From a bacterium (GTDB lineage: Bacteria > Patescibacteriota > Minisyncoccia > UBA6257 > JAGOQP01), in contig JAKANP010000003.1 of the NCBI GenBank assembly GCA_021812345.1, positions 82 through 64,081 on the forward strand: 64,000 bases of DNA. The letters are read 5' to 3'. The translations under genes were made by a program, and so were the position numbers. The number at the start of each line of letters is the position of its first letter. Position 1 is the stretch's first letter. Shown one piece after another: positions 28,472-44,380 of the stretch. Under the pieces are notes generated by a model that saw nothing but the letters and a program-made list of their open reading frames with translations, searched no databases and was not told the origin of the DNA.

Positions 28472-29479
28472 ATGTTAGGAAAAGGACTAGAATCTTTAAT
28501 TCCAAAGAAAAATTCATCCTCCGGCCAGTTTTCCGGAGATGATTTTCAGAATGGAGGTTTTGCAGGTGATGATAAAAAATCTTCATCGGATTTAAATTTA
28601 AAAAAAGAAAACCAATTATCTCAAGAGCAGACAAATAATTCTATCAGTAATGAGCCAAAAATATCGGGTCCGATTTTTTATATTGAAGTCGATAAAATAA
28701 TTTTGAATCCATATCAACCGAGAAAAGAATTTGATCAGGAAGCATTAAAAGAACTTTCTATTTCAATCAGAGAATTTGGCATACTTCAACCCTTAGTGGT
28801 GTCAAAAATTGAAGAAGAAACTGAAACTGGAACGAAAGTTTCCTATCAATTAATTGCCGGTCAAAGAAGGCTTATGGCTTCAAAAATCGCCGGACTAAAA
28901 ACCGTTCCCGTTGTTATCAGAAATGCTCTTAAAAAAACCGAAGCCTTGGAAATGGCGATAGTGGAAAACATTCAACGCGCCGATTTAAACACCATAGAAA
29001 CCGCCCGCGCCTACTCGCGACTGTCGGATGAGTTTGGGTTGACTCAAAGAGAAATTGCCGCTCGTCTTGGAAAGAGTAGGGAAGTTATTGCTAATGCTTT
29101 GCGTCTTTTATCCTTACCGACGGAGATCCAAGAGGCGATTTCAAAAGGAAAAATAAACGAAAGCCATGCGCGTCTGCTTTTGCAAGTAGAAGAGCCGGAT
29201 AAACAAATGGATATTTTTAATAAAATTATCAATGATAATTTGGGAGTTCGCGACATTCGTTTGCATATTAAGCAAAATAAAGGAATTGATTCCAAAGAAA
29301 AATCAATAACAGCCGAAGATTTGGAATTAAAACGTCTCGAAAAAGACCTTTCCGAATTTTTAGGCGCTCCAGTTAATGTGGAATTTTCCCGGGCAGGAGG
29401 GAAAATAGTGATTCATTTCTATTCTCCTGAAGAAGCCAAAGGAATTGCCAATAAAATAAAACCTGAAGATTTAATTTAA
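28472..29479 (+). CDS. parB: Chromosome partitioning protein ParB/Spo0J
   Basis: ParB box GQRRLMASKIAGLKTVPVVIRN, HTH, N-terminal low-complexity extension. Confidence 0.85.
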   Translation: MLGKGLESLIPKKNSSSGQFSGDDFQNGGFAGDDKKSSSDLNLKKENQLSQEQTNNSISNEPKISGPIFYIEVDKIILNPYQPRKEFDQEALKELSISIREFGILQPLVVSKIEEETETGTKVSYQLIAGQRRLMASKIAGLKTVPVVIRNALKKTEALEMAIVENIQRADLNTIETARAYSRLSDEFGLTQREIAARLGKSREVIANALRLLSLPTEIQEAISKGKINESHARLLLQVEEPDKQMDIFNKIINDNLGVRDIRLHIKQNKGIDSKEKSITAEDLELKRLEKDLSEFLGAPVNVEFSRAGGKIVIHFYSPEEAKGIANKIKPEDLI

Positions 29480-29506: not shown

Positions 29507-31210
29507 TTAATCTATTAATTTATATCCTATTTCCTTAACACCTTCAACTTTTTTTATTTTGAGCATTAAATTTTCGGCTTTTTCTTTATTTTCGGCGCCG
29601 ATAACCAACCGAATAAAAGGATATTTATCATTTAAAAATGTTTCCATTTTTATGACCGGAAAGTGATTTCTTGAAATAATTGTCGTTATGTCTTTAATCA
29701 GTCCGATTCTGGATTTGCATGCTATTTTATATTCCGTCTTTTTTGTTGTTGAAGTGGATTTTTTTATGGAATATTTTATTTTTCTTTTGGCATAATGAGT
29801 TTTTACAAAATTAAGCCAGTTTTCGGAGGCGCGCTTGTTTTTCTGAGTTAAAATATCGACAATATCTCCGGATTGGAGCGGAGTATCAAGAGGAGCAATT
29901 TTGTTGTTTATCTTTGCTCCGGCGCAAGAATCTCCTATATTGCTGTGTATGTAGTAGGCAAAATCAACCGGAGTCGAGCCAACCGGAAGGTCAACAACTT
30001 TCCCTTCGGGAGTTAAAACAAATATTCTGTCCGAGAAAAAATCTATTTTTAACGCTTCTATGAATTCTTTTGATCCGGGGAATTGATTTTGCCATTCTTT
30101 GAGTTGTTTGGTCCAAATAGTTTCCTTGGAATCGACTGCCGATATTTTTCCCTGATTGTAATCATCTTTTCCTTTTTTAGATTCGTAAAACCAATGAGCG
30201 GCGCTTCCATTTTCCGCCTGTTCGTGCATTTCGTCTGTTCTTATCTGAAACTCGGTTGGTTTATCATCCACACAAAAAACAGTAGTGTGAAGACTTTGAT
30301 AGCCATTTGGTTTTGGAAGGGCGATGTAATCTTTTATTCTGCCCGGAAGCGGCGGCCATGTTTGATGAATAACTCCAAGCGCCAAATAACATTCTTCAAC
30401 GTTTTTTACGATTATTCTCAAAGCGATTAAGTCATAAATATTTTCCAAATTCAAATCATAACGCAAAAGTTTTTTGTATAAACTGTATAATCTTTTTGCT
30501 CTGTAATCCAAAGATACCGGGACTATTCCGGCTTTTTTTAAATTCGTTAAAACTATCGGCTCCACTTTCTTTAAGTATTTCATTCTTTCATCGTATGACT
30601 CTTTAACCGAACCGATAAGCCATCTATGTTTTTCCGGATAAATATAGGGGAAAGCCAAGTCTTCAAGTTCTCCGGCGATATTTTGCATTCCTAATCTGTA
30701 GGCAATCGGCGCATAAATTTCCGCCGTCTCCAAAGCGATTCTTTTTTGTTTTTGAATGGGAATATGATTAAGAGTTTTCATATTATGCAATCTGTCGGCA
30801 AGTTTTATAAAAATAACTCTTAAATCTTTGCTTATGGCCAGAATCATTTTTCTTAACGATTCTATGCTCTGTTCTTCTTCTTTATATTTTATATTTCCCA
30901 GTTTGGTAACTCCCTCAACCAAAAAAGAAATTTCCTCTCCGAATTTGTCTTTAACTTCCTGAACGGAAACTCCACAATCTTCGATGGTATCATGAAGAAG
31001 TCCTGCCGATATCGATTGATAATCCAGTTGCCATGATGCCAGCTTGAAGGCCGTTTCAAACAAATGAACAAAATAATTTTCTCCACTGGCGCGTTTTTGA
31101 TTTTTATGAGCATTTTTAGCGAAAACAAAAGCTTTGGCAATAACTTGAGCGCCAACCTCGTCGTCGGGAAAATGTTTTTTAAATTCTTTTGTTAGTTTAT
31201 CTAAAGTCAT
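29507..31210 (-). CDS. rel: Bifunctional (p)ppGpp synthetase/hydrolase (RelA/SpoT family)
   Basis: HD hydrolase (LLHDTIEDCG), synthetase motif (RIKDYIALPKPNGYQSLHTTV), TGS and ACT-like C-terminus. Confidence 0.9.
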   Translation of the reverse strand: MTLDKLTKEFKKHFPDDEVGAQVIAKAFVFAKNAHKNQKRASGENYFVHLFETAFKLASWQLDYQSISAGLLHDTIEDCGVSVQEVKDKFGEEISFLVEGVTKLGNIKYKEEEQSIESLRKMILAISKDLRVIFIKLADRLHNMKTLNHIPIQKQKRIALETAEIYAPIAYRLGMQNIAGELEDLAFPYIYPEKHRWLIGSVKESYDERMKYLKKVEPIVLTNLKKAGIVPVSLDYRAKRLYSLYKKLLRYDLNLENIYDLIALRIIVKNVEECYLALGVIHQTWPPLPGRIKDYIALPKPNGYQSLHTTVFCVDDKPTEFQIRTDEMHEQAENGSAAHWFYESKKGKDDYNQGKISAVDSKETIWTKQLKEWQNQFPGSKEFIEALKIDFFSDRIFVLTPEGKVVDLPVGSTPVDFAYYIHSNIGDSCAGAKINNKIAPLDTPLQSGDIVDILTQKNKRASENWLNFVKTHYAKRKIKYSIKKSTSTTKKTEYKIACKSRIGLIKDITTIISRNHFPVIKMETFLNDKYPFIRLVIGAENKEKAENLMLKIKKVEGVKEIGYKLID

Positions 31211-33447
31211 GTTTTTACCCGGTCTTTTTTGTGAAATTTTTTTGAAGTTTTATCCTTGGGTTTTTCTTTCCACTGATTATACAACTCGGTCAATTCTTTT
31301 TCGGTTTCGGGTTTTTTATTAATTATAAAATTGCAATCCGGCCAACGCGTGCAGGCATAAAAAGGTTTTCCGCGTCCGCGTCCTTTTTTTTCAACAATAT
31401 CTCCGGGATTGTTTTTTCTTTCCGGAGTATCCAAGCAAAGAGGGCAAACAAATCCCGTCTTGTTCCAAATTCTTGATATCCCTTTACATTTTGGATAGTC
31501 AACGCATCCTAAAAAATATCCAAACCTCCCTCTTTTTACTTTCATTGGTTTCCCGCAGAGAGGGCATTTTTCTCCTCTGGTTTTTTCTTCCAGTTCTTTT
31601 ATTTTTGCCGCTTCTTCGGGCATTGGTAAAGTAATCTTGCTTCCTTCTTGCGGACAGGCTAAAAATTTTCCCATTCTTCCGAATTTAATCAGCATCGGCT
31701 TTCCACAATGAGGACAAAGAGTGTCTGAAATCTGAATATTTTTTTGGACTTCCGACTCTTTTTCGTCAAGATGTTTTTCAAAAGGTATGTAAAATTCTTG
31801 GCAAACATTAACCCACGGAATTTGACCTTGAGCTATTTCATCAAGTTCTTCTTCGATGTGAGCGGTAAAATTAACATCTATTATTTCGGGAAAATGTTCT
31901 ACCAGCATATCGTTAACCATAAATCCGATTTCTGTCGGATGATATTTTTTTTCCGTCTTTTCCACATATCCACGCTCTTGAATCGTTGAAAGAGTCGGGG
32001 CATATGTTGAGGGTCTTCCCACTCCAAAATATTCAAGAGCTTTTATCAATGCGGCATCGGTATATCTTGCCGGCGGTTCGGTAAAATGCTGTATCGGCAA
32101 AATTTCTTTTGAAATAATTTTATCGTTTTCTTTAAGCGAGGGGAGATTATTTTCCTTGTCTTCTTGAGTGTCGCTTTCTCCCGATGAGTATACTTTTAAA
32201 AATCCGTCAAAAATAATCGTCTGCCCCGTCGCTCTAAAAACGTATCTATTGTCTTCATCTTTGATATCAACGGATGTTTGCTGAACTTTTGCGGATTGCA
32301 TTTGACAGGCTATAGTCCTTTTCCAAATTAATGTGTACAAACGGGATTGAGAACGGTCTTTTAAATTTGCCATCTCGGGACTTTTTGCAAGATTTGTCGG
32401 TCTGATAGCTTCGTGAGCTTCCTGAGCTCCTTTTGATTTATTGGTAAAATATCTTGGAGAATCGAGTTGGTAGTTTTTTCCAAACGCCTTTCCGATAATT
32501 TGTTGAGCTTGGCTAAGCGCCGAAAAAGACAAATTGAGACTGTCGGTTCTCATATAAGTTATCAGTCCGTTTTCATAAAGTTTTTGAGCAATAACCATCG
32601 TCTGCTTTGCGGAAAATCCAAATCGTCGCGATGCTTCTTGCTGAAGAGTTGAAGTGGTAAAAGGGGGATAGGGATTTCTGTAAACTTCCTTTTTATTAAT
32701 AGAGGCAACGCTATATTTCAATCCGTTTAAATTGGCGGTTATTTTTTCCGTTTCATTTTTATCGGAAATTTCCATTTTATCCATTTTTTTTCCGTCTATC
32801 GAATAAAGCTTGGCGCTAAATATTTTTTTATCTCCGGCTTTTAAAAAATTTCCTTCTATTGTCCAATATTCCTCTTTGTTAAAGTTTTGTATTTCTCTCT
32901 CTCTTTCAACTATCAAGCGCAAAGCAACGCTTTGAACTCTTCCGGCAGAAAGCCCATATCTTATTTTGTGCCACAAAAACGGAGACAATTTATATCCCAC
33001 CAATCTATCCAAGACTCTTCTCGCTTGCTGAGCGTCGACTAAGTTCTGGTCTATGTTCCTAGGATTTTTTAAGGCGTTTTTTATGGCGTCCTCGGTTATT
33101 TCGTGAAAAACTATTCTTTCGAAATTATTGTTTTTCTTCTTTTTGTCTTTTGATTCGCTTAATATTTGAGCAATGTGCCAGGCAATAGCTTCTCCTTCTC
33201 TGTCTTCGTCGCTTGCCAGAATAACCTCTTGAGCTTTTGATGCTTCTTTTTTTAAAGTCTCCACATTTTCTTTGGCTTTTGTCGGTATGACATAAGTGGG
33301 AAGAAAATTATTTTTTACGTCAATTCCAAGCTTGCTTTTCGGCAAATCTCTAACGTGGCCATAAGATGAAAGCACTTTGAAATCCTTTCCTAAAAATCCG
33401 GAAATCGTCTTTGCTTTTGTGGGTGATTCGACAATTATTAATTTCAT
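31207..33447 (-). CDS. topA: DNA topoisomerase I
   Basis: TOPRIM N-terminus MKLIIVESPTKAKTI..., catalytic Tyr region, multiple C-terminal Zn ribbons (CPHCGKPM, CPLCGKPM). Confidence 0.93.
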   Translation of the reverse strand: MKLIIVESPTKAKTISGFLGKDFKVLSSYGHVRDLPKSKLGIDVKNNFLPTYVIPTKAKENVETLKKEASKAQEVILASDEDREGEAIAWHIAQILSESKDKKKKNNNFERIVFHEITEDAIKNALKNPRNIDQNLVDAQQARRVLDRLVGYKLSPFLWHKIRYGLSAGRVQSVALRLIVEREREIQNFNKEEYWTIEGNFLKAGDKKIFSAKLYSIDGKKMDKMEISDKNETEKITANLNGLKYSVASINKKEVYRNPYPPFTTSTLQQEASRRFGFSAKQTMVIAQKLYENGLITYMRTDSLNLSFSALSQAQQIIGKAFGKNYQLDSPRYFTNKSKGAQEAHEAIRPTNLAKSPEMANLKDRSQSRLYTLIWKRTIACQMQSAKVQQTSVDIKDEDNRYVFRATGQTIIFDGFLKVYSSGESDTQEDKENNLPSLKENDKIISKEILPIQHFTEPPARYTDAALIKALEYFGVGRPSTYAPTLSTIQERGYVEKTEKKYHPTEIGFMVNDMLVEHFPEIIDVNFTAHIEEELDEIAQGQIPWVNVCQEFYIPFEKHLDEKESEVQKNIQISDTLCPHCGKPMLIKFGRMGKFLACPQEGSKITLPMPEEAAKIKELEEKTRGEKCPLCGKPMKVKRGRFGYFLGCVDYPKCKGISRIWNKTGFVCPLCLDTPERKNNPGDIVEKKGRGRGKPFYACTRWPDCNFIINKKPETEKELTELYNQWKEKPKDKTSKKFHKKDRVKT

Positions 33448-34316
33448 AATTTAATTTGATAATTAGTTCCTTCTTGAAAAACAAGTTCCTCTAATAATAA
33501 ATTGGATAGAGCGCAGGAAACATCACGAGGATTTAGTTTAGTTATTTGACAGATCTTGTCAACAGAAAGGGGACGAGACGATTTTTTTAATTCATTAAAT
33601 ATCTTTTGCTCATCGGTTTTTAATTCTATTTTTTTATTTTCCTCTCTAATTAAATCATAAGACATATCCGAAAGGAAATCATTAACGCCCGTAATCAGTC
33701 GGGCGCCACTTCTTATCAATTTATGAGATCCGTTGAAATTAAAAGACCCTATTGTCCCGGGCACTACAAAAATAGGTTTTTTCTGCTCGGTGGCAAATTT
33801 TGCCGTTGTCATAGACCCTGATTTAAAAGGCGCTTCAATTACAATAACCGCCGAAGAGAGAGCGCTTATAATTCTGTTTCTCATTAAAAAATTTCCAGGG
33901 AAAGACGGCGTTTGGGGAGGATATTCCGATATTAAGCATCCATTATTTGAAATTATTTTATCGGCTAATTGATTATTTGAAGCCGGATAAATTTTATCCA
34001 GTCCGTTTGCTAAAACGGCAACAGTTTGTCCTCCGGCGTCAACCGCTCCCCGGTGAGCGGATGTATCGATTCCTATCGCCAGTCCGCTGATTATCAAAAA
34101 TCCGTTTTTTGCCAAAGTAAAAGAAAAATCGTAAGCCGTTTTTTCTCCGTAAGCGGAAGCTTTTCTGGTTCCAACGATGGCTACGCAGGTTTTGTTTTTG
34201 GGTATTTCTCCTTTTATATAAATTGATTCTACCGGAGGAATAATGCCGGATAGTTTTTCTAAAAAATCATATTTTTTAAAACTATCGCTTTCTATTTTTG
34301 TAAGATTGTTTTTCAT
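33444..34316 (-). CDS. dprA: DNA processing protein DprA (Smf)
   Basis: Rossmann-like DprA core (GLAIGIDTSAHRGAV..., VIVIEAPFKSGSMTTA), conserved dprA-topA synteny. Confidence 0.85.
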   Translation of the reverse strand: MKNNLTKIESDSFKKYDFLEKLSGIIPPVESIYIKGEIPKNKTCVAIVGTRKASAYGEKTAYDFSFTLAKNGFLIISGLAIGIDTSAHRGAVDAGGQTVAVLANGLDKIYPASNNQLADKIISNNGCLISEYPPQTPSFPGNFLMRNRIISALSSAVIVIEAPFKSGSMTTAKFATEQKKPIFVVPGTIGSFNFNGSHKLIRSGARLITGVNDFLSDMSYDLIREENKKIELKTDEQKIFNELKKSSRPLSVDKICQITKLNPRDVSCALSNLLLEELVFQEGTNYQIKL

Positions 34317-34377
34317 CCTTCTTTATTATACAATATAAATAATAACGGCCAATAATTTAAGTTTATATTTTTAATTT

Positions 34378-34920
34378 ATGTTCGATAAAGCGCTTGATTT
34401 CAAAAAAAGTTTTTACATAAATTTGGGAATTTTGGCGGCGATTATTCTGGTTTTTGTGCTGTTTTCTTATCTTTTGAGAATGAGCATCGATCATCAAATT
34501 TCCGTAATCCAAGACATAAATTCCAAAAAATCTTTTGTTTCGGATTCATCAAACAATCTTTCGGTTTTGATAAAACAATGGAATTTTGTAAGAAATTATG
34601 CTCAACAGGTTTCTTTAATGGTGCCGTCCAAAGACAACCTTGTTAATTTTCAAAAAGATTTAAATGATATTTCACAAAAAGACGGAGTTTCTTTGACTTT
34701 TAATTTTGGCTCCGAAACGCCGGCCTCCGGTTCGGGAAGTCTTGGGTCAATAGGATTTTCTTCTATTATTACCGGTTCTCAGTCGGGAATTTTGAACTTC
34801 ATTCAGGATGTTGAAAACAAATATTATTCTCTTAAAATAAGTTCTTTGGAATTGGTTCAGCAATCCGACACGAGTTCCAAATTGTCAATAACCGGACAAG
34901 TATTTTATTCCGGAAAATAA
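34378..34920 (+). CDS. Second PilO-like membrane protein
   Basis: 180 aa, N-terminal TM, architecture parallels the ORF at 1621-2193. Confidence 0.4.
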   Translation: MFDKALDFKKSFYINLGILAAIILVFVLFSYLLRMSIDHQISVIQDINSKKSFVSDSSNNLSVLIKQWNFVRNYAQQVSLMVPSKDNLVNFQKDLNDISQKDGVSLTFNFGSETPASGSGSLGSIGFSSIITGSQSGILNFIQDVENKYYSLKISSLELVQQSDTSSKLSITGQVFYSGK

Positions 34921-34921
34921 T

Positions 34922-35167
34922 ATGAAAATAAGCATCGAATCCATCAAAAAAAATAAAAGCGAAATAATTTTTTATTCAGTCGGATTAACTTTGTCCGTTA
35001 TTATTATTTTTGTATTTGTTAATTCTATAGGTTATCTTGTTTCCAGTTTGGAGTCGGCGCTTGAGGTGACTCATTCCAATTATTCTTCGGTAACTTTCAA
35101 TGTTGATTCGCTTAAAACATTGGGGGTGGTAAATTCCATACCGCCTTCCGTTGAGGTTTCTCAATAA
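34922..35167 (+). CDS. Small membrane protein
   Basis: 81 aa, single TM helix, translationally coupled to previous ORF. Confidence 0.35.
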   Translation: MKISIESIKKNKSEIIFYSVGLTLSVIIIFVFVNSIGYLVSSLESALEVTHSNYSSVTFNVDSLKTLGVVNSIPPSVEVSQ

Positions 35168-35306
35168 TTTCATCTTGATTTTTTTTGGTTTGCGTATAAA
35201 ATGATTTCATTGGTGTTTTCGCGCAAAATTTATATATAGTGATGCGATTTTTTGCCGGATATGCCATTTTAACAATAAAGTATTGATTCATATTTATTTT
35301 AAAAAA

Positions 35307-35378
35307 GCGCACATAGTTCAGTGGTAGAACGCTGTCCTGATAAGACAGAGGTCCCAGGTTCGATCCCTGGTGTGCGCA
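35307..35378 (+). tRNA. tRNA-Ile(GAT)
   Basis: GCGCACATAGTTCAGTGGTAGAACGCTGTCCTGATAAGACAGAGGTCCCAGGTTCGATCCCTGGTGTGCGCA; anticodon loop CTGATAA. Confidence 0.85.
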
Positions 35379-35394
35379 CACTGCGCTTATTTTA

Positions 35395-35447
35395 CGGGGC
35401 GCAGTAAGACAGAGGTCCGGAGGTCCGATCCCTCCCGCGTGCACAAA
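35395..35447 (+). other. Degenerate duplicate of the tRNA-Ile 3' half
   Basis: GTAAGACAGAGGTCCGGAGGTCCGATCCCTCCCGCGTGCACA parallels ATAAGACAGAGGTCCCAGGTTCGATCCCTGGTGTGCGCACA but cannot fold as a tRNA. Confidence 0.6.
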
Positions 35448-35492
35448 TAAAATGTTCAATCGGAATATTTTTTTGTAGGAAAGATAATATAT

Positions 35493-35569
35493 GGGCGTTT
35501 AGCTCAGTTGGTTAGAGCGTCACATTGACATTGTGAAGGTCAGAGGTTCGACTCCTCTAACGCCCACCA
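35493..35569 (+). tRNA. tRNA-Val(GAC), CCA encoded
   Basis: GGGCGTTTAGCTCAGTTGGTTAGAGCGTCACATTGACATTGTGAAGGTCAGAGGTTCGACTCCTCTAACGCCCACCA; anticodon loop TTGACAT. Confidence 0.85.
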
Positions 35570-35616
35570 TTTTTATAAACTATGAAAAATACCCAAGGTT
35601 GTGGTATTATTTTTTT

Positions 35617-35955
35617 ATGTCAACAAAAGAAATCCCACCGTCTTTCCCATCAATTCCGACCGGAAATTTGGAGGAGGAAAAAATATTGAATTTGGCGAAA
35701 CAATTAAGAGAGTATTCCACGCAATTAATTCTTCAAAGAAAATACAAAGAGCACAGCGCATATTCCGAAGAAATAAAACAAATGAAAGATAAACTTAAGG
35801 AAAAATACGGAGAAGATGTTTTTTTCAGCTGTAGACTTTATCATTTTTTAATTAAAAGCACGATGCCTCCGGGAACAAAAGAAATTTTTGATTTACCAAA
35901 CGGAGAATGGTCGGAATTTATCGAAAAAAAAGCAAAAGAATTCGGAATTAATTAA
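35617..35955 (+). CDS. Hypothetical protein (start at internal ATG downstream of tRNA-Val)
   Basis: The annotated ORF from 35533 overlaps tRNA-Val; MSTKEIPP start at 35617 is more plausible. Confidence 0.4.
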   Translation: MSTKEIPPSFPSIPTGNLEEEKILNLAKQLREYSTQLILQRKYKEHSAYSEEIKQMKDKLKEKYGEDVFFSCRLYHFLIKSTMPPGTKEIFDLPNGEWSEFIEKKAKEFGIN

Positions 35956-35966
35956 TTTTTATTATT

Positions 35967-36299
35967 ATGACTTTTAATGAGTATCAAAATGAATCAAAAA
36001 AGACGGCAAAATATCCCAAAATAGACGGCAAGGGATATTTGTATCCGGTTTTGGGACTTGCCGGAGAGGCCGGCGAAGTTGCCGAAAAAATAAAAAAAGT
36101 TTTTAGGGATAAAAATGGTAAAATTTCCGATGAAACAAGAATTGAAATTATTAAAGAGCTTGGAGATGTGCTTTGGTATTTATCACAGATTTCTTTGGAG
36201 CTTGAGGTTCCTTTTGATAAAGTGGCTGAAGAAAATTTAAAGAAACTCGCTTCTCGTTTTGAGAGAAACAAAATTTCAGGAAATGGAGATAACAGATAA
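35967..36299 (+). CDS. MazG-like nucleotide pyrophosphohydrolase
   Basis: GLAGEAGEVAEKIKK...ELGDVLWYL EExxE/D metal-binding pattern, 110 aa. Confidence 0.7.
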   Translation: MTFNEYQNESKKTAKYPKIDGKGYLYPVLGLAGEAGEVAEKIKKVFRDKNGKISDETRIEIIKELGDVLWYLSQISLELEVPFDKVAEENLKKLASRFERNKISGNGDNR

Positions 36300-36305
36300 A
36301 AAACA

Positions 36306-36995
36306 ATGGAAATTCCGATTATTTATCAAAATAAAAATTTCATTGCCATAAATAAGCCGGCCGGGCTTTTGGTCCATTCTTCGGATTATCAATCAAAAAA
36401 TGAGCCGACATTGGTTGATTGGATTTTAAAAAAATTTCCTCAAGTAAAAAATGTCGGAGATGACACAAAGAATCGCCCCGGAATTGTTCATCGCTTGGAT
36501 AAAGACACTTCGGGAATTATGCTTATTCCTCTAACGAGTGAATATTTTTTTTATCTTAAAAAATTATTTCAAGATAAAAAAATAAAAAAAACTTATCTTG
36601 CCGTGGTTAAGGGGGAGGTTAAAGAAAAAATCGGGAAAATAGATAAGCCCATAGGGATAAAATCGGGAACGACAAAACGAACGGTTTTTTCGGATAAAAT
36701 GTCAAAAGAGGCGATAACTGAATATAAATTGGTAAAAAATTTTGAAAAAGAAGGCCAAAAATTTTCACTTTTGGAAGTGAGTCCTCTTACCGGAAGAACC
36801 CATCAAATCAGAGTTCATCTTAATTTTATAAATCATCCTGTTGTGGGAGATAAAATATATGGAGGAAAACAAAACTCGTTATTGGCATCTCGACAGATGC
36901 TTCACTGCTATGCTCTTGAGTTTGAAATTGAACCGGGGAAAACAATGCGGCTCGAGGCTCAGTTGCCGAATGATTTTGAATATCTTATTAAATAA
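36306..36995 (+). CDS. RluA-family pseudouridine synthase
   Basis: HRLDKDTSGIMLI catalytic Asp motif, 229 aa. Confidence 0.85.
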   Translation: MEIPIIYQNKNFIAINKPAGLLVHSSDYQSKNEPTLVDWILKKFPQVKNVGDDTKNRPGIVHRLDKDTSGIMLIPLTSEYFFYLKKLFQDKKIKKTYLAVVKGEVKEKIGKIDKPIGIKSGTTKRTVFSDKMSKEAITEYKLVKNFEKEGQKFSLLEVSPLTGRTHQIRVHLNFINHPVVGDKIYGGKQNSLLASRQMLHCYALEFEIEPGKTMRLEAQLPNDFEYLIK

Positions 36996-37037
36996 TTGTA
37001 TTATATTTATAAATTAAAATTAAAGTAATAAAACGAT

Positions 37038-38942
37038 ATGGGAAATAAATTTGAAAGTTTTGATGGGCCGATTAAATCCTCCAAGAAAGAAGAAGAGGCG
37101 ATAAAGAGGGTTGTCGATAATTCCGAAGTGGAGAATGCGATAAAAGAATTAAAAACCGCCGGTGAAATTGCCGTAGAAAAAACCGGTGGCCCGATTCCCA
37201 AAAAAGAAGAAAGGATGGGCAGAGATATGACTGCCGCGGAATTGGCTATGAAAAAAGCCGACGAGATGATTGCTCAAATGGATAACAAACCCAAAGAGAA
37301 AAGCGAATTGCCGGAAAGCAAACCGCAAGATGAAATAGAAGATGTTTTTAAATCTTCGGATGGTATTGCCGAATCAGCCAGTCTTCCGGGTAGCGGCAGT
37401 CCCGGCGGTGGAAATAATGGCAATCCTAAATATGAAACACAGATGGGAGGAGGCCCGGGAGATTCCGGTGACTACCCCACATGTCCAAATTGTGGTAAAA
37501 AAATACTTCCCGGGAAAGAAGAATATCACAGAACAAAACAATGTTTATTGGAAAATCCTGATAGCAATGTTTTGAAAGTTAATTCTCACATTGAATTTGG
37601 ACCGGGAGTAACTATTGAAGATTTAGAAAATGAATTAGCCAGAAAAGAAAAAGAACTCCAGGATCTTGAGGGCACTACTCCGGATAATTTTATTTTCAAA
37701 GACACTTTCAGTAGAGAAGATATAGAAAAAACTATAGAAAATAATAAACGACAGCTTAAAAAAGAAATTGAAAGATTGAAAAAGGAGATAGAAAAAATGA
37801 AAGCTGACGCCGAAAGGGAAAAAATACTTTCCGAATTAAATGCCAAGCTTTTAGATGCTCAAGAAAATTTGGAAAAAGCCAAAATGAGCGCCAAACCGAT
37901 GGAAATCGCATATTGGGAAGATATTATTAAAAAAATTAAAGAAGAAATATCAAAATACGAAAAAGGCATAATCCCCGGAGCAATTGATGCGATTAAAAAA
38001 GCTTTCGAATCTTTTAAAGACAGCAATGCGTGGGGATTTATAAAAGAAAGAGCAAAAGGCTTTGGGACTTTCGGTTTTTGGGAATTTCATCAGGCGGAAA
38101 GATTAAGAAGCGGAACAGCTAAAACAGGAAAGACAATCGAGGAGCAGGCAAAACTGATTTCGGAAGAAAAGCATTTGGATTTAAATGCCGCTTTGGAGGA
38201 AGCTTCCCATATGGAAAAAGTTTTTGATGCCGCCGGAATTGATCCGACCGACAGGAGAAAAGAAGAATACGATCTTTTATCAGAAAAAATAACCGATAGA
38301 AAAAAACAGGAAAATGAAGTTGTTATTAAAAAAATAATTGATGGAATTCCGGCCGCTCTCGAAAGTCGAAACGTGCAAAAATATAGGGAAGCCAATACCG
38401 GTAAAATAGCTATGACTCCGGAAAAAATAAAAGATTTGCAGGAGAAAATCAGGATTGAGCTCGAAAAAATGAAAGACGGCACTGCTCGTCAGGATGTTGA
38501 AAAATATGCAACAGTTATGAGAAGAGGATTGGATCCAAAGTGGTGGTCAAGATATATTTATGGCGGATTGGAAACTGCACTGGATGCTATTGGAGTTAAG
38601 TTGATTCTTTCCAAAGTTTTAGCGGAAAAATCGGTTGCGGCGGTTTCGGAAAAAGCTCCCGGACTGGTTTCATCCCATAGTTCTGCCGAAAAAAGCGTTG
38701 AAATTGGAATGAGAGATAATGTTTGGAATGAATCGCGAAGATTCCTTGTTAAAGAGGGAATTTCCAATCCTTCAAACAAACAAGTTCTTGAAGCTGCCAG
38801 AACCGTGGCGCAAGAAAGCGGAGTGACAGTCCCGGAATGGGGAATAAACGGACATATTTTAAGCACCAAGATGCCAGCAGGTTATTTGCTTAAAATGGGG
38901 GGAGTTATAAAAAAATTATTAATGATAAAATCGTTGGGATAA
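37038..38942 (+). CDS. Hypothetical coiled-coil protein with CPNC Zn-ribbon-like motif
   Basis: 634 aa, K/E-rich heptad-like segments, Gly/Pro linker, YPTCPNCGKK; no recognisable family. Confidence 0.4.
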   Translation: MGNKFESFDGPIKSSKKEEEAIKRVVDNSEVENAIKELKTAGEIAVEKTGGPIPKKEERMGRDMTAAELAMKKADEMIAQMDNKPKEKSELPESKPQDEIEDVFKSSDGIAESASLPGSGSPGGGNNGNPKYETQMGGGPGDSGDYPTCPNCGKKILPGKEEYHRTKQCLLENPDSNVLKVNSHIEFGPGVTIEDLENELARKEKELQDLEGTTPDNFIFKDTFSREDIEKTIENNKRQLKKEIERLKKEIEKMKADAEREKILSELNAKLLDAQENLEKAKMSAKPMEIAYWEDIIKKIKEEISKYEKGIIPGAIDAIKKAFESFKDSNAWGFIKERAKGFGTFGFWEFHQAERLRSGTAKTGKTIEEQAKLISEEKHLDLNAALEEASHMEKVFDAAGIDPTDRRKEEYDLLSEKITDRKKQENEVVIKKIIDGIPAALESRNVQKYREANTGKIAMTPEKIKDLQEKIRIELEKMKDGTARQDVEKYATVMRRGLDPKWWSRYIYGGLETALDAIGVKLILSKVLAEKSVAAVSEKAPGLVSSHSSAEKSVEIGMRDNVWNESRRFLVKEGISNPSNKQVLEAARTVAQESGVTVPEWGINGHILSTKMPAGYLLKMGGVIKKLLMIKSLG

Positions 38943-38977
38943 TAAAATAAAATTATTATTAAGAAAATCTTAAAAAT

Positions 38978-39286
38978 ATGGAAAATAATTTTGAAAAAAT
39001 CGGAGAATTATTGGCAAAGTCGCCTTTAGATAAAGAAATCAAAGATGTTGTTTTGGAAAATTTGGATAAAATGCCGGAAAATGCATTAAATGATTTGGCT
39101 TATTCCTTAGAAAAAGAAGATGAACAACTTGAAAATATTTCCAAGATATTAAAAGATTTTGACGCCGATCAAGACGCAAGATGGAACAATTTGGAAGTCA
39201 AGCAAAAAGAAATTGCCGATAAAATGATAGATGAAGCAATAAACGAAATATCAAGCGATGGAAAAGCAGAAGAGAAAGTTAACTAA
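38978..39286 (+). CDS. Hypothetical acidic protein
   Basis: 102 aa highly acidic ORF. Confidence 0.3.
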   Translation: MENNFEKIGELLAKSPLDKEIKDVVLENLDKMPENALNDLAYSLEKEDEQLENISKILKDFDADQDARWNNLEVKQKEIADKMIDEAINEISSDGKAEEKVN

Positions 39287-39294
39287 ATTTATTT

Positions 39295-39323
39295 TTGACA
39301 ATTTGGTTTTTGTATAGTATTAT
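39295..39323 (+). promoter_or_regulatory. Sigma70-type promoter of rplS (TTGACA-17-TATTAT)
   Basis: -35 at 39295-39300, -10 at 39318-39323; ATG at 39334 implies a leaderless or near-leaderless mRNA. Confidence 0.45.
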
Positions 39324-39333
39324 CTTGACTACT

Positions 39334-39660
39334 ATGTTATCCAAAGAAATTTCCGAAAAAATAAAATCCGGCGCTCTTGTGTCGGTAGTTGAAAGAATCA
39401 AAGAGGGCGATAAAGAAAGACAGAGCCAATTTAAGGGCATTGTTTTATCAAGAAAGCATGGCGATCAGCCCGGGGCAACTTTCACTGTTAGAGCGGTCGT
39501 CGATGGAGTGGGTGTTGAAAAAATTTATCCTTTATTGTCGCCGAATATCGTTTCGGTAAAAATAATTTCTTCTCCCAAAAAAGTGGGACGTTCGAAACTT
39601 TATTATTTGAGAAAAGTTTCCAAAAAGAAATCAAGGCAGAAAATCGGAGTAACGGCATAA
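39334..39660 (+). CDS. rplS: 50S ribosomal protein L19
   Basis: ISEKIKSGALVSVVERIKEGDKERQSQFKGIVLSRKH...FTVR...GVEKIYPLLSPNIVSVKI...KLYYLR matches bL19. Confidence 0.8.
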   Translation: MLSKEISEKIKSGALVSVVERIKEGDKERQSQFKGIVLSRKHGDQPGATFTVRAVVDGVGVEKIYPLLSPNIVSVKIISSPKKVGRSKLYYLRKVSKKKSRQKIGVTA

Positions 39661-39694
39661 ATTCAAATCAAATATCAAATCTAAAATATAAAAA

Positions 39695-39724
39695 CAAAAA
39701 CAGGGGATCATACCCCTGTTTTTG
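39695..39724 (+). terminator. rho-independent terminator after rplS
   Basis: aaaacaggggatcatacccctgtttttgg. Confidence 0.65.
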
Positions 39725-39786
39725 GTAAAATACATTGTTATGCGCTAATACCTTGAGCGAAATATTATATTTGATAAAATATAAAT

Positions 39787-40452
39787 ATGAATCCTTTGGG
39801 TAAAGTTAAAATCAAATGGTCTCCGAATTTTGCTTACGCGATTGGGTTGATAGCGACAGACGGAAATTTATCATCAAATGGCAGATGTATTGTTTTTACG
39901 TCAAAAGACTTGGAAATGATAAATAATTTTTTAAAATGTCTATCTGTATCTTCAAAAATAAGCATGAAGGCTAGGAGCAATGAGAAAGAGAAGAAGTATT
40001 ATTATGTTCAGATCGGGGATATAAATTTCTATAAGTTTCTGAATTCTATTGGACTTACTCCGGCAAAATCAAAAACTATCGGAATTATTAACATACCTGA
40101 CAAATATTTCTTTGATTTTTTGCGGGGACATTTTGATGGGGATGGCACTTCCTATTCTTATTGGGATAAGCGTTGGAAATCAAGCTTCATGTTTTATACA
40201 GAGTTCATATCGGCCAGTAAAAAACATATTGATTGGCTTAGGGGCGAAATTTCTAAAAAAATTGGAATCAATGGGCATATAACAAAATCAAAAAATAATT
40301 CAGTTTATCAATTAAAATATGCGAAAAGAGAGTCTACAAAATTGATTTCAAGAATGTACTATGGTAAAAAGGTTGTATGTCTTTCTAGAAAAATAGAGAA
40401 AATCAAAAAGGCATTAGCAATAAATAAAGTTGAAGATGCCCAGGTGCTGTAA
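39787..40452 (+). CDS. Free-standing LAGLIDADG homing endonuclease (double motif)
   Basis: Two LAGLIDADG motifs: YAIGLIATDGNLS and FLRGHFDGDGTSY, 221 aa; not inside an obvious intron or intein host; 3' end overlaps tRNA-Leu(GAG) by 15 nt. Confidence 0.8.
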   Translation: MNPLGKVKIKWSPNFAYAIGLIATDGNLSSNGRCIVFTSKDLEMINNFLKCLSVSSKISMKARSNEKEKKYYYVQIGDINFYKFLNSIGLTPAKSKTIGIINIPDKYFFDFLRGHFDGDGTSYSYWDKRWKSSFMFYTEFISASKKHIDWLRGEISKKIGINGHITKSKNNSVYQLKYAKRESTKLISRMYYGKKVVCLSRKIEKIKKALAINKVEDAQVL

Positions 40453-40521
40453 CTGGTAGCCAGGCCAGCTTGAGGTGCTGGTGTCCGCAAGGACGTGGAG
40501 GTTCGAGTCCTCTCCTGGGCA
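40438..40521 (+). tRNA. tRNA-Leu(GAG)
   Basis: GCCCAGGTGCTGTAACTGGTAGCCAGGCCAGCTTGAGGTGCTGGTGTCCGCAAGGACGTGGAGGTTCGAGTCCTCTCCTGGGCA; anticodon loop TTGAGGT, long variable arm. Confidence 0.8.
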
Positions 40522-40558
40522 CAAAACAAAACAGCCAAATAGGCTGTTTTGTTTTGTG
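40522..40558 (+). terminator. Strong hairpin immediately 3' of tRNA-Leu(GAG)
   Basis: acaaaacaaaacagcc-aaat-ggctgttttgttttgt, 16-bp perfect stem. Confidence 0.6.
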
Positions 40559-40720
40559 CAGGAAGCAGGTAAATTTATTTGCTTGTGTGAGGATTCGAAC
40601 GACGGAGTATGTGCGAGCCAGCAGGCGAGCGCACGAGTCGGTGCCCAGCCCGAGCTGAGCGACTGGCGAAGCGAGAGGCGAGGGTAAATCCCTTACCTGC
40701 CGGTAGGCAGGTCTCCTGGG

Positions 40721-41050
40721 TACTACTTCGCTCCTACTTCGTAGAAACTTCGTAGGACGCGGTAAAGCTTCGTAGCACAAAGCACTACTTTGCTCCTACT
40801 TCGTAGAAACTTCGTAGGACGCGGTAAAGCTTCGTAGCACAAAGCACTACTTTGCTCCTACTTCGTAGAAACTTCGTAGGACGCGGTAAAGCTTCGTAGC
40901 ACAAAGCACTACTTTGCTCCTACTTCGTAGAAACTTCGTAGGACGCGGTAAAGCTTCGTAGCACAAAGCACTACTTCGCTCCTACTTCGTAGAAACTTCG
41001 TAGGACGCGGTAAAGCTTCGTAGCACAAAGCACTACTTTGCTAAAGCTTC
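40721..41050. repeat. Tandem array of 5.2 near-identical 62-bp units with phased TTCGTAG-type subsites (iteron-like)
   Basis: Unit CTCCTACTTCGTAGAAACTTCGTAGGACGCGGTAAAGCTTCGTAGCACAAAGCACTACTTTG repeats without spacers; each unit has three exact CTTCGTAG plus one degenerate copy with start-to-start spacings 11/11/20/20 bp. Confidence 0.9.
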
Positions 41051-41115
41051 TTTTTTTAATAGAGCAAAACATAAAATAGGCCCATCACGGTCTATTTTTG
41101 ATTTTATTTATCAAC

Positions 41116-41144
41116 TTGACACAAGTAATAATATGTGCTAGTAT
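41116..41144 (+). promoter_or_regulatory. Sigma70-type promoter (TTGACA-17-TAGTAT) upstream of the GC-rich ORF
   Basis: Core TTGACACAAgTAATAAT nearly identical to the promoter at 42154; followed by SD AGGGAGG 6 nt before ATG 41249. Confidence 0.5.
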
Positions 41145-41248
41145 TTGCTCATAATCGGGGGATGAGGGATTGTCCCAAAATTCTACCGATACAGCACTCA
41201 ATGTTTTAATGTTTTTGTCCCGATGGGAGTCGGGGCAGGGAGGTCACA

Positions 41249-42025
41249 ATGGAAGCGATGGAGAGAATCAAGGGTTTGATGGACGAGAAGGCCGTCGAGA
41301 AGTGGGCCGGTGAGTTCGGGACCTGGAAGGACAAGATGGTCCACGAGCTCGCCAACGAGCTGTCCAAACGAGGGTTCTCCTCCGAGAACCCGGCAGCGGC
41401 AAAGGACGTCAAGGCGGCCGAGCAGTTTCTGGCCGCCAAGAGGCAGCTCGTGGAGGCGAAGGTCGACGAGACCTTCACCCCCGAGAACATCGCCGCCGCA
41501 CATCTGGACTGCATCATCAAGGTCCAGGTGGATGAGACGCAGGAGTTTCGTGTCATCTGTCAGTCGCCTCGTCACGCCGGGGCGAACATGGCAGTTCTCC
41601 CGACCCAGAAGTTCATCGTCCGCAAGAACGCGGACGGCGAGCTGACTCGGATGTGCCACCAGGGCACATCCGAGGCGATCGTCACCGGCGACTTCCTGGT
41701 CACCGGGGAGGGGCGGATCATGCGCTTCTGTCCCTTCTGCAAGGACAAGGCGATCGCCGCCGCCCGCGAGCGTGGCGAGAAGTTGACGTTCTACCGCCTC
41801 GGCGAGGCGGTGAACAAAATCTCCCGCATCCGGGAGAACGAGGCGCGCGAGGCCGAAGAGAACGCCAAGCGCGAGGCTGAGGCCGAGCGGATGGAGCACT
41901 CGGCTTCCCGACAGATCGCCGGCAAGCGCGTGGACTCCCGACGCGCCGACTTCAACCGTCGGCACACCTCCGGACTCAAGCGTGCCAGCGGAAAGTTGGC
42001 CCGCGATCTCATGAGCGAAGACTGA
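41249..42025 (+). CDS. Orphan GC3-rich protein (foreign-looking), Cys motif FCPFC
   Basis: 258 aa; coding region about 62% GC with strongly G/C third positions in a 35% GC genome; good SD; terminator at 42088; no recognisable domain; the antisense ORF 41198-42046 is a high-GC artefact. Confidence 0.6.
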   Translation: MEAMERIKGLMDEKAVEKWAGEFGTWKDKMVHELANELSKRGFSSENPAAAKDVKAAEQFLAAKRQLVEAKVDETFTPENIAAAHLDCIIKVQVDETQEFRVICQSPRHAGANMAVLPTQKFIVRKNADGELTRMCHQGTSEAIVTGDFLVTGEGRIMRFCPFCKDKAIAAARERGEKLTFYRLGEAVNKISRIRENEAREAEENAKREAEAERMEHSASRQIAGKRVDSRRADFNRRHTSGLKRASGKLARDLMSED

Positions 42026-42318: not shown

Positions 42319-43068
42319 ATGAGCAATTTATTTTCTTCCGATTTTTTTTCGACTCGCGATATTTTTTTGAATTTGTTTGAGAGCAGTCGGGTTGATATCG
42401 GCAAAAAGGGTTTTCGCTTTAGCACTCAGATTCGAGATTTGGTGAAGAAAGGAATTGAGGTTCTCAAGAGTGGAAACAGAGATGAGATTGGCGGAATCAG
42501 ACAAAAAATTTCCGATGCTTGGACAGAATTAATTGATGCCCGTATTCCTTCGGATCTTGCTTGGCGTCACGAAGCCGAGGCGGCTCAAGAATTGTGGGAG
42601 TTTGAATTTGTTGTAGCTATGTACGATTATCTTTTTGACGGCGCGGCGTTGGATTTTAAGAAGTTTGATATTTATCCGCCGGATGAAGATGGCGATGAAG
42701 ATAGCGAAGAATATCGTGAAAAACAAGCGAGAAACGATTATATGTGTTCATTTACTCCTCAGCAATGGCTCGCCGGTCTTATCGATGCTCCTACCGAATT
42801 GGGTAAGGTTTTGGAGGATTATTGTATTGACAATGATCTTTCTCCCAGCGCGTACGTAGAACTGTGGGATAAATATGTTAAGATCGTGGAGCAAGTTGTG
42901 AACTTTCTCAGCCCGTTTGAAAATGTGTATGGGCAGGTAATCAACAACTCCCGGATGCGCGGATTTGCCAATACTTTTCGCGGTCGCTATGGTCGGCTGC
43001 GCGGATTTCTTGAGAGAAAAAAGCGCGACTTGATGATACTCAGACTTCAAATGAAGATTGGTTTGTAA
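42319..43068 (+). CDS. Hypothetical all-alpha protein (orphan); start at ATG 42319 after SD AAGGGG
   Basis: The annotated ORF begins at 42238, but SD plus ATG at 42319 (MSNLFSSDFF) fits better; intermediate GC (about 45%); terminator at 43083. Confidence 0.45.
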   Translation: MSNLFSSDFFSTRDIFLNLFESSRVDIGKKGFRFSTQIRDLVKKGIEVLKSGNRDEIGGIRQKISDAWTELIDARIPSDLAWRHEAEAAQELWEFEFVVAMYDYLFDGAALDFKKFDIYPPDEDGDEDSEEYREKQARNDYMCSFTPQQWLAGLIDAPTELGKVLEDYCIDNDLSPSAYVELWDKYVKIVEQVVNFLSPFENVYGQVINNSRMRGFANTFRGRYGRLRGFLERKKRDLMILRLQMKIGL

Positions 43069-43110: not shown

Positions 43111-43234
43111 TTTAAAATAATTTTATCAAGCATCTTACAACCGTAGGATGCCTGATAAATTAATATTAACGCATAATCATTTTTTGCCTTTTTGTAAAAT
43201 TTTATTTAAAATAAAATCATCTAAAATAAAAATT

Positions 43235-44380
43235 ATGAAACGAGAAAATATTGTCGCCAAAGATCAAACAAGCGAAAAATTGCTCAAGGAAATAGAAAAC
43301 AAAAACGATATTAAAAGTGAAAGAATTAAAAGGCTTTTGGCAATGCCGGATCTTTCACGAAAAATAAATTCTCCGCTTAAATTTATTATTGACGCCATTC
43401 TGGCTCTGCCGATTTTCAAAGATTTTGATATTTTGGAATTTCCGGAAATTGTAAGTGTTCGGGATAATTTTGATTTGTTAAATGCCCCCGCCGAACATCC
43501 CAGCCGAAAAGAAACCGATACTTATTATGTTGACGTAAATCATGTTTTGCGAACTCAAACTACGGTTATGTGGCCGTTTTATTTACAGCGTCCTGAAGCG
43601 ATAGAGCAACTTAAAAAAGAAGGAGAAATAGGATTGTTGAGTTACGGAAAAGTTTTTAGAAAAGATGAAATAGACAGAAGTCATTTTCCGGTTTTCCATC
43701 AGATAGACGGACTTTATATTTGCAAAAAAGAAAAGAAAATAATCGGCATCCCGGAACTTCAGGAGGTCTTAACTGCCATAACGAAAGCTATTTATGGAGA
43801 TATAGAATACAAATTTTTGGAAGACAGTTTTCCTTTTACAAATCCAAGCACTCAAATTGAAATAAAATCAAAAGATGTTTGGCTTGAAGTTGTCGGCGCC
43901 GGAGTGGTTCACACTCAGGTGCTAAAGAATCTTAATATTGATCCGGAAATTTATAACGGATGGGCATTCGGATTCGGCTTGGAGCGTCTGGCGATGATAA
44001 AGAACGGTATCAACGATATCAGAGTTTTTTGGTCCAACGACGAAAGGATTGCCGGACAATTTAAAGATATAAATAGTCAATACAAAGAAGTAAGTAAGTT
44101 TCCGATGACTTATCGCGACATTTCATTTATTATAAATAAGGATACGAGTTTGAATAATTATTACGAAATTGTCCGTGATTGCGCCGGTGATTTAGTGGAA
44201 GAAGTTAAAATGACCGACAAATATGAAAATAATCAAAAATTCGGTCCGGATAAAATAAGTTATACTTTCAGAATTACCTATCGCTCTCCGGAAAGGACGC
44301 TCACCAACGAAGAAGTAAATTTGATACAAGAAAAAATTATTGAAAAAACAAAACAAGAGATAAACGCTGCCGTGCGTTAG
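43235..44380 (+). CDS. pheS: Phenylalanine--tRNA ligase, monomeric type: PheS catalytic core fused to C-terminal FDX-ACB anticodon-binding domain
   Basis: Class II motifs (HPSRKETDTYYV...LRTQTT; FPFTNPSTQIEI...WLEVVGAGVVH; AFGFGLERLAMIKNGINDIRVF) followed by PMTYRDISFII...ISYTFRITYRSPERTLTNEEVN, which matches the FDX-ACB fold normally at the PheT C-terminus; no pheT in window. Confidence 0.8.
   Translation: MKRENIVAKDQTSEKLLKEIENKNDIKSERIKRLLAMPDLSRKINSPLKFIIDAILALPIFKDFDILEFPEIVSVRDNFDLLNAPAEHPSRKETDTYYVDVNHVLRTQTTVMWPFYLQRPEAIEQLKKEGEIGLLSYGKVFRKDEIDRSHFPVFHQIDGLYICKKEKKIIGIPELQEVLTAITKAIYGDIEYKFLEDSFPFTNPSTQIEIKSKDVWLEVVGAGVVHTQVLKNLNIDPEIYNGWAFGFGLERLAMIKNGINDIRVFWSNDERIAGQFKDINSQYKEVSKFPMTYRDISFIINKDTSLNNYYEIVRDCAGDLVEEVKMTDKYENNQKFGPDKISYTFRITYRSPERTLTNEEVNLIQEKIIEKTKQEINAAVR

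Follow-up and report, generated by a model that had tools for sequence, protein, structure and literature searches.

Between a tRNA gene and the promoter of a GC-rich orphan gene, a member of the Patescibacteriota carries a run of near-identical 62-bp repeats, and the question raised by this locus is whether such a run is a functional DNA element or the product of repeat amplification. The array lies in a 64,000-nucleotide stretch of contig JAKANP010000003.1 (assembly GCA_021812345.1), hereafter the window, upstream of a gene that we call X (41249-42025, forward strand). The original prediction read the repeats as iterons, a centromere-like partition site or a high-occupancy operator. This reading was not supported, because both the array and its motif are absent from relatives with the same gene order, and because the phasing of the sites comes from one unit. 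On balance it is probable that the array is a young intergenic minisatellite, i.e., a variable number tandem repeat (VNTR), found in this lineage only, and not a conserved replication, partition or operator element.

Tandem Repeats Finder reported a single outstanding array on the forward strand (40722-41042; period 62, 5.2 copies, 98% matches, no indels, score 628), which outranks every other tandem repeat in the window by far. Five full units start at positions 40722, 40784, 40846, 40908 and 40970, and an 11-nt partial unit follows at 41032-41042. The array had been described as five perfect repeats; it is real, but its units are not all identical, since unit position 8 is a C in units 1 and 5 (ACTACTTCGCT) and a T in units 2-4 and in the terminal 11-nt partial unit (ACTACTTTGCT). 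The near-identity of the units and the resulting order C,T,T,T,C,T fit a recent expansion. The array is noncoding: 62 is not a multiple of 3, TAG occurs in all three forward frames of every unit (coordinates 40742, 40753 and 40773), and no open reading frame (ORF) of at least 40 aa in the ORF list of the window crosses it. Head-to-tail units of ~10-100 bp with high identity that are not bound to a reading frame are the features of a minisatellite or VNTR, and the array has them. Conversely, the unique spacers of a clustered regularly interspaced short palindromic repeat (CRISPR) locus are lacking; the units abut, the period being no longer than the 62-bp unit itself, as had been correctly recognized. 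The unit is itself composed of 8-11-bp sub-repeats.

An octamer, CTTCGTAG, has 15 exact copies in the window, all on the forward strand and all within the array, compared with an expectation of 0.8 (maximum 3) in dinucleotide-preserving shuffles. The clustering anticipated for this motif was therefore borne out, a search of the 64 kb giving none outside the array. Each unit further holds one degenerate octamer, CTTYGCTC, and another degenerate site, CTTCTTTT, is found in the right flank. The octamer coordinates (40726/40737/40748/40768/40788 and onward) give start-to-start spacings of 11, 11, 20 and 20 bp, exactly as first reported. It had been concluded from these spacings that all sites lie on one face of the DNA, which holds within one unit but not over the whole array: at 10.5 bp per turn, 62 bp correspond to 5.9 turns, i.e., a rotation of about –34 degrees per unit and of ~170 degrees over the array. 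Similarly, of the about 20 sites counted, 15 exact plus the degenerate copies, only the three exact and one degenerate sites of a single unit are independent and the rest are amplification copies. Thus, since the multiplicity comes from amplification, only the content of one unit together with CTTCTTTT counts as independent evidence.

The number of units differs between assemblies. To compare copy number we used the 11 contigs on which the exact X protein is present. In L001, L002, L003 and L005, two NCBI metagenome-assembled genomes among them, there are 1.2 copies, so that these sequences are exactly 248 bp (4 units) shorter than the window, with flanks that are 100% identical to it on the left and 99.6-99.97% identical on the right. 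All seven of the contigs that also encode a LAGLIDADG protein located upstream show this short (1.2-copy) spacing. An independent contig assembled at k = 141, L004, starts inside the array and holds two full units and a partial one (at least 2.3 copies), with the variants in the order T,C,T as in the window. In addition, the sequence of four Logan contigs sets in exactly 30 nt ahead of the point where unique sequence resumes on the right of the array. If k in Logan is 31, as we take it to be, this distance equals k–1. There is no repeated 31-mer within the 1.2-copy sequence and, on this assumption, the breaks at the right edge point to a graph branch caused by a unit-to-unit junction in the reads. 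L004 and the Logan breaks together argue that, at least in some samples, the unit is truly present more than once. By the same kind of reasoning short reads cannot count the units, since units 2-4 are identical over 186 bp, which exceeds both k = 141 and the typical read length. Long-read evidence of assembly collapse or expansion had been named as what would refute the array, and this outcome is partly in sight: the assemblies give 1.2, at least 2.3 and 5.2 copies. Real variation, collapse by assemblers or a combination of the two may underlie these differences. In a comparison of L001-L005 with the window, all assemblies that span the array are 100% identical to the left (31001-40794) and 0.03-0.4% divergent to the right (40970 onward), which suggests that assemblers switch strain paths at the array repeat.

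The surrounding locus is widely shared and the array is not. The gene order MazG, RluA, L19, tRNA-Leu, X, Y, pheS, gap is common to at least four further lineages, and in relatives with this order (L010-L017, L170, L172 and L176) neither the tandem array nor CTTCGTAG is present upstream of X; CTTCGTAG is also absent upstream of X in L174 and L175. Whereas the sites of an operator are expected to be conserved in orthologous promoter regions, those of the array are not; the promoter, leader and Shine-Dalgarno sequence of X are conserved in six of the six lineages aligned. As these signals are kept in relatives from which the array is absent, the array is not required for X's conserved expression signals. 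The three-site octamer pattern had no match in the JGI metagenomes or in IMG/VR, and the array region showed no similarity to plasmids or phages. Arrival as a foreign mobile element at tRNA-Leu was rejected on the same grounds, X, Y and the flanking genes standing in one order in at least four lineages and no plasmid or phage match being found. In L011 and L013 the slot of the array is filled by an ORF of 147 aa with its own promoter and terminator; the idea that the array and the spacer to its left are a decayed form of this ORF was discarded, tblastn finding no trace of it in the window.

Nor are tandem arrays a recurrent trait of the locus, a possibility that was rejected because L170 alone has one, which is C-rich and unrelated. 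It lies between X and Y (L170 6994-7155), with periods of 14/35/49 nt and units such as CTCCACACCTCACC. A scan of the sequence collection with the pattern CTTCGTAGNNNCTTCGTAG was set aside: with 16 specified bases the pattern is too short, and what it returned were chance matches and unrelated tandem repeats of 11 bp that the pattern by its nature selects. The same pattern brought up groups of three CTTCGTAG in single-cell genomes of marine SAR11/Alphaproteobacteria (L035, L087, L045, L052, L056, L069, L089, L113 and L137), with spacings of ~11 bp and 45 bp and with the groups recurring ~657 bp apart. These groups are probably unrelated to the array in the window.

The short form of the locus suggests how the array could have arisen. 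In the single-copy form (L001 9722-9794), a 62-bp segment lies between ACTACTTCGCT and ACTACTTTGCT, i.e., it is bracketed by an 11-bp direct repeat, ACTACTTYGCT; in the window the left copy of this repeat is at 40722-40732 and the right copy, identical with the terminal partial unit, at 41032-41042, both on the forward strand. Short direct repeats 62 bp apart are a classical substrate for duplication by slippage or unequal recombination, and the bracketing pair is the probable slippage substrate here. The ancestral state would be one bracketed 62-bp segment, as still seen in four further assemblies of this organism. Mispairing of slipped strands or unequal recombination between the 11-bp repeats would have produced a head-to-tail duplication of the segment, and the copy count would have risen by more slippage, now between identical units. 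The seed unit would already have carried three CTTCGTAG and one or two degenerate octamers at 11/11/20-bp spacing, which amplification turned into a pattern of 15 + 6 sites. Because it resembles elements elsewhere in the genome that contain a TCGTA core, the seed segment is itself probably derived from such a short 'TCGTA-module'. The effect of the array on its surroundings is likely passive: located 73 bp upstream of X's strong, conserved promoter, it would serve as an untranslatable spacer whose length varies.

Among known repeats, the array is closest in form to other VNTRs. The interspersed repetitive units of mycobacteria (MIRUs) are intergenic minisatellites dispersed at many loci per genome and often overlapping the ends of flanking genes (PMC3635867). 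As in VNTRs and MIRUs, the units of the array are near-identical, tens of bp long, intergenic and arranged head to tail, and their number differs between close genomes or assemblies, a difference that may be strain polymorphism or assembler collapse; expansion is likewise explicable by slippage or unequal recombination and requires no function. Unlike MIRUs, the unit is built of 8-11-bp sub-repeats and occupies one locus only, no second copy of it being present in the 64-kb window, so that dispersal of the MIRU type is not seen there. Contingency loci, such as the promoter repeats of Neisseria and Haemophilus, have units of 1-7 bp that lie in or beside the core promoter or a regulator site. 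The array resembles them as a tract of unstable length upstream of a promoter, which could alter the geometry of the promoter surroundings, and differs from them in its 62-bp unit and its position away from the core promoter.

The core of the octamer occurs in two other structured elements of the window. The first lies between rpmE and prfA. The hexamer TTCGTA is found 34 times in the window, 15 times in the array, 8 times in an inverted repeat at 63117-63196 and 11 times scattered. The inverted repeat consists of four TACGAAA followed by four TTTCGTA modules, the last of them being TTTCGTAG; the corresponding RNA folds into a hairpin of -35.8 kcal/mol (z = -6.4), and the TACGAA/TTCGTA inverted repeats had no match in Rfam. 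Only 5 nt past this cluster, and overlapping the rpmE stop codon, the 11 nt with which the array unit begins, ACTACTTTGCT, recur exactly on the forward strand (63202-63212). A local alignment of the array with the rpmE locus scored 30, compared with 19.4 +/- 2.7 for shuffles. The shared 11-mer was considered as proof of common descent and downgraded, since ~1.9 chance 11-mer matches are calculated for a 62-bp unit in 128 kb, i.e., within the window. The position of the copy beside the TTCGTA cluster, together with the alignment score, is suggestive of a common origin of the two loci. In a comparison with 80 rpmE loci of further candidate phyla radiation (CPR) genomes, words from ATACGAAT were the most cluster-prone CG-containing hexamers. 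Inverted TACGAA/TTCGTA clusters occur in the rpmE 5' untranslated region (L236 1428-1496) and ~15 nt upstream of the 5' end of a 16S gene (L240 961-1025), and weaker ones in L217 (43-90), L211 (1423-1465) and L205.

The second element flanks a gene for a PaaX-like protein of 191 aa (54293-54868, forward strand; Pfam PaaX_M, 5e-13), which has a winged helix-turn-helix and a Cas2-like domain. A repeat of ~46 bp stands on both sides of the gene, and both copies contain the perfect palindrome TACGATCGTA: in the upstream copy (54191-54236, forward strand, 84 nt before the gene) the palindrome is followed by G, giving the half-site TCGTAG, and the downstream copy (54918-54963, forward strand) carries TACGATCGTAG. 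The palindrome also stands beside a homologous PaaX-like gene (44-46% protein identity) in two further lineages (L265 67 and 724; L266 1176 and 1820; L267 859), one of which has full copies of TACGATCGTA on both sides, while the other has an imperfect downstream copy, TACGATCGTG. Elsewhere in the ~463 kb of related CPR sequence examined, TACGATCGTA was not found. In all three lineages a longer inverted repeat is centred on it, with outer arms that vary in sequence but remain complementary. From this arrangement, the palindrome could be an autoregulatory operator, or could form the hairpin ends of a small cassette.

Several of these observations, and some made on the array itself, weigh against its being a minisatellite and nothing more. 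The differing copy numbers on which that reading draws may reflect assembler collapse rather than biology. Three exact octamers and their degenerate relatives in one 62-bp unit are far beyond chance, and slippage covers the octamers within the unit only if an earlier round of 11-bp duplication is assumed. The equivalent upstream region of relatives in the L010-L013 range, L011 and L013 included, has a loosely similar 3 x CACTTCG. TCGTAG occurs 20 times in the window, and of the five occurrences outside the array four lie in the rpmE-prfA inverted repeat and the PaaX-flanking palindromes; moreover, array sites 1 and 2 have TCGTAGAA and TCGTAGGA in common with the two copies of the palindrome. 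The distribution of TCGTAG hints at a recognized motif, the core recurring in inverted arrangement in the rpmE-prfA repeat and the PaaX palindromes, compared with its direct arrangement in the array. As two further structured elements in the window contain this core, a protein-binding role of the array is possible. A TCGTA-recognizing factor is plausible, and the PaaX-like protein would be a candidate for it.

The alternative that survives best builds on these points: a Parcubacterial factor recognizing TCGTA(G), for which the PaaX-like protein is the best candidate, would fill 15-21 direct half-sites cooperatively, and the array would be a regulatory or a titration (decoy) site for the operon of X and Y. 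We regard this as unlikely, although it retains real weight. The location of TACGATCGTA on both sides of the PaaX-like gene in three lineages, the identity of the palindrome half-site and its flank, TCGTAG(A/G)A, with array sites 1 and 2, the single direction and 11/20-bp spacing of the octamers, and the TTCGTA clusters beside rpmE, prfA and a 16S gene in the window and other CPR genomes all speak for it. On the other side, no relative conserves the array; and the conserved element is a palindrome with covarying arms rather than a direct repeat, so that a dimer built for it will not necessarily bind half-sites standing alone. Assuming perhaps 10-20 regulators in the genome, the chance that a 6-mer is shared with one operator is estimated at ~0.1, and we put the coincidence between array and palindrome at roughly that level. 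Distance also counts against a regulatory site. The array had been placed immediately upstream of the promoter, which proved incorrect: 73 bp separate its end from the –35 box (41116), and this gap contains a weak terminator-like hairpin with a T-run (41073-41098, forward strand). Binding of any protein to the array is, moreover, a prediction from sequence. The more specific combination, in which the array is a recently amplified half-site cluster for a conserved Parcubacterial TCGTA(G) factor, with the widespread PaaX-like protein as leading candidate, and serves as a copy-number-variable titration or regulatory site upstream of the X-Y operon, we consider more doubtful still.

Operators of multimeric regulators offer the nearest precedent for such a function. 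The repeats bound by MraZ and the tandem boxes of the PhoB/OmpR type keep a 10-11-bp register, comprise 2-6 sites and are conserved at orthologous promoters. The array shares with them several direct repeats of 6-8 bp at about one helical turn upstream of a promoter. It is unlike them in that it is not conserved, that its cognate regulator is only a candidate, and that its multiplicity stems from the recent amplification of a 62-bp unit.

It is improbable that the copy number is merely an artefact of assembly, with one unit or some other number in reality and the 5.2 copies produced by a mis-resolved loop in the de Bruijn graph. Such an error would account for the finding that every contig spanning both flanks in the searched collection has 1.2 copies, and for the shift in flank identity at the array (100% to the left, 99.6-99.97% to the right), which is typical of a switch of strain path; by reasoning on lengths, the 186 bp over which units 2-4 are identical lie beyond k = 141 and typical reads. 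Against it stand L004, whose two full units and partial unit in T,C,T order come from an independent k141 assembly, and the four Logan contigs, whose start 30 nt before the right flank requires a unit-to-unit junction (again assuming k = 31), the 1.2-copy sequence having no repeated 31-mer that would cause the break.

A rather remote reading takes the array to be transcribed, as a small RNA or sponge running from the GC-rich spacer on its left to the hairpin at 41073-41098, with CUUCGUAG motifs that would be bound by an RNA-binding protein, for instance X or Y. The terminator-like hairpin after the array is consistent with it, as are the separate transcription unit found at the equivalent place in L011 and L013 (the 147-aa ORF, which has a promoter and a terminator of its own), the binding of single-stranded nucleic acid by the family to which Y belongs, and the very stable RNA hairpin of the related rpmE-prfA modules. 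In conflict with it, there is no promoter-like site on the forward strand at 40300-41100, and the 62-bp unit folds as RNA no more stably than its shuffles (z ~0), so that the unit gives no sign of a structured noncoding RNA. Rfam likewise identified only tRNAs, both at the gathering threshold over the whole window and by E-value at 40350-41300, where the array had no match with E < 0.2. As the array is not conserved, there are also no homologues in which covariation could be sought.

The form of the repeats recalls plasmid partition sites. In R1 parC, ParR binds iterons of 11 bp; these form two sets, each of five contiguous copies, that flank the promoter of the ParR/ParM operon (PMC2241845). 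The array shares with parC short direct repeats in an 11-bp register, in one orientation and near a promoter. It is unlike parC in its mixed spacing (11 and 20 bp) and in flanking the promoter on a single side, with a gap of at least 73 bp (73 bp to the –35 box), and it is chromosomal, unconserved and followed by a zinc-binding orphan and a C3PO-like gene, i.e., X and Y. Chromosomal ParA/ParB genes are located at 27224-29479, 12 kb upstream of the array. The 16-bp parS palindrome TGTTTCACGTGAAACA, to which the octamer bears no relation, had no match with up to 3 mismatches in the 64-kb window. There is no cluster of DnaA boxes at 40-41.2 kb, no GC-skew switch in the window, in which the cumulative GC skew rises monotonically, and no Rep or DnaA domain in the proteins flanking the array, so that the hallmarks of an iteron origin are lacking. 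Thus, despite the resemblance of its 11-bp-spaced direct repeats to the R1 iterons and the ParA and ParB genes 12 kb away, a replication origin or a parC/parS-type centromere is hardly credible, since no Rep, ParR or ParM gene adjoins the array, X and Y are unrelated to these, relatives sharing the locus lack the array, and the array region has no plasmid or phage similarity.

The left edge of the intergenic region is formed by tRNA-Leu(GAG) (40438-40522, forward strand; ARAGORN; Rfam tRNA, 45.6 bits), which is kept at the locus in relatives, with 89% identity in L010, L011 and L013. Directly upstream, and overlapping it by 15 nt, is a free-standing ORF resembling LAGLIDADG homing endonucleases (39787-40452), which was not found at the same position in L010-L013 or L170. 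Directly after the tRNA, a self-complementary match in the sequence forms a perfect hairpin with a 15-bp stem that resembles a terminator (40523-40557). It is followed by the spacer that precedes the array (40580-40720), which by composition is GC-rich (55-59%) and contains no credible ORF. The spacer is species-specific, without a BLAST or tblastn match in the relatives, and its RNA folding z-scores are -2.5 on the forward and -1.2 on the reverse strand. A transfer-messenger RNA or tRNA-like gene on its reverse strand was considered and rejected, ARAGORN and Rfam both being negative. The window is otherwise ~37% GC, and its genes encode type IV pilus proteins, a ligase, ParA/ParB, a split transketolase and comparable products. 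For one protein of the window, the homologues with a taxon name belong to Candidatus Giovannonibacteria, Candidatus Sungbacteria and the 'Parcubacteria group', which makes the organism most likely a Parcubacterium of the CPR.

On the other side of the array, X is preceded by a near-consensus promoter with a TG-extended –10 element, TTGACA-17-TGcTAGTAT (41116-41144, forward strand), which by alignment is conserved in six lineages. Its 5' leader of ~100 nt (41145-41248, forward strand) contains a small hairpin, a conserved GATACAGYAC box and the Shine-Dalgarno sequence AGGGAGG. Over the six aligned lineages the leader measures ~100-150 nt (window 41100-41251; L011 2606-2781; L170 5838-6003; L172 128-333; L176 780-931), and the changes in its hairpin stem are compensatory (GGGA/TCCC, CGAGA/TCTCG, GGCA/TGCC). 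The leader may be a cis-regulatory leader RNA.

X itself encodes 258 aa and has a GC content at third codon positions (GC3) of 0.86, compared with ~0.30 for the genome. Its GC3 is 0.81-0.87 in every lineage, whereas neighbours in the same order have 0.30-0.55 (L011 2779-3540, L170 6001-6786, L176 929-1573, L172, L174 and L175), and the protein is only 28-43% identical between lineages. Since the high GC3 is kept across diverged lineages, it is maintained and does not mark recently acquired foreign DNA. In L180 a non-homologous gene of 288 aa occupies the slot of X, and its GC3 is likewise raised (0.70 versus 0.40). The X family is very small, with three clusters in 5.8 billion proteins and nine representatives in 1.84 billion by profile search. 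Residues C104, H109, C161 and C164 are invariant and probably form a zinc site, and the C-terminal tail is charged and basic; X would thus be a zinc-binding protein whose fold is unknown.

Gene Y (42319-43068, forward strand, with a possible start at 42238) adjoins X upstream of pheS in several CPR lineages and, by profile and Foldseek comparison, is C3PO/TRAX-like, i.e., a member of the translin superfamily. It had no Pfam match. The profile search matched AfTRAX (3zc1, E = 0.002) and the top 11 Foldseek matches of the predicted structure, whose prediction was run with two sequences, were the archaeal AfC3PO and NeC3PO (probability 1.0). Acidic residues E91, E94, D156 and E160 are invariant. 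The products of 41249-42025 and 42319-43068 had been put forward as proteins that might bind the array; as a zinc-binding protein of unknown fold and a C3PO/TRAX-like protein, neither looks like a Rep, Par or classical DNA-binding regulator. The next gene (43148-44380) encodes a single phenylalanyl-tRNA synthetase of 410 aa in which the class II core (tRNA-synt_2d) is joined to an anticodon-binding domain (FDX-ACB), the architecture of the monomeric mitochondrial enzyme; L180 has separate pheS (334 aa) and pheT (657 aa).

Taken alone the array matters little, being one more intergenic minisatellite in an uncultured bacterium. It does serve as a warning that repeat counts from short-read metagenome-assembled genomes are not to be trusted as regulatory architecture. 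The neighbouring genes X and Y may be of more interest than the array, and the by-products of its analysis include the conserved GC3-rich gene X, the bacterial C3PO-like gene and the conserved palindrome around the PaaX-like gene. To our knowledge, almost nothing is known about gene regulation in the CPR. If the array were indeed a cluster of half-sites for a PaaX-like factor, a VNTR would be linked to regulon-wide control, given the TACGAA/TTCGTA clusters near rpmE, prfA and 16S genes in the CPR, and the target operon would consist of a GC3-rich zinc-binding orphan and a predicted bacterial nuclease of the C3PO/TRAX type. If TCGTAG is the recognition element of a conserved CPR factor, the pairing of a motif with its regulator, together with a naturally amplified array of sites, would provide an experimental handle on regulation in these bacteria.

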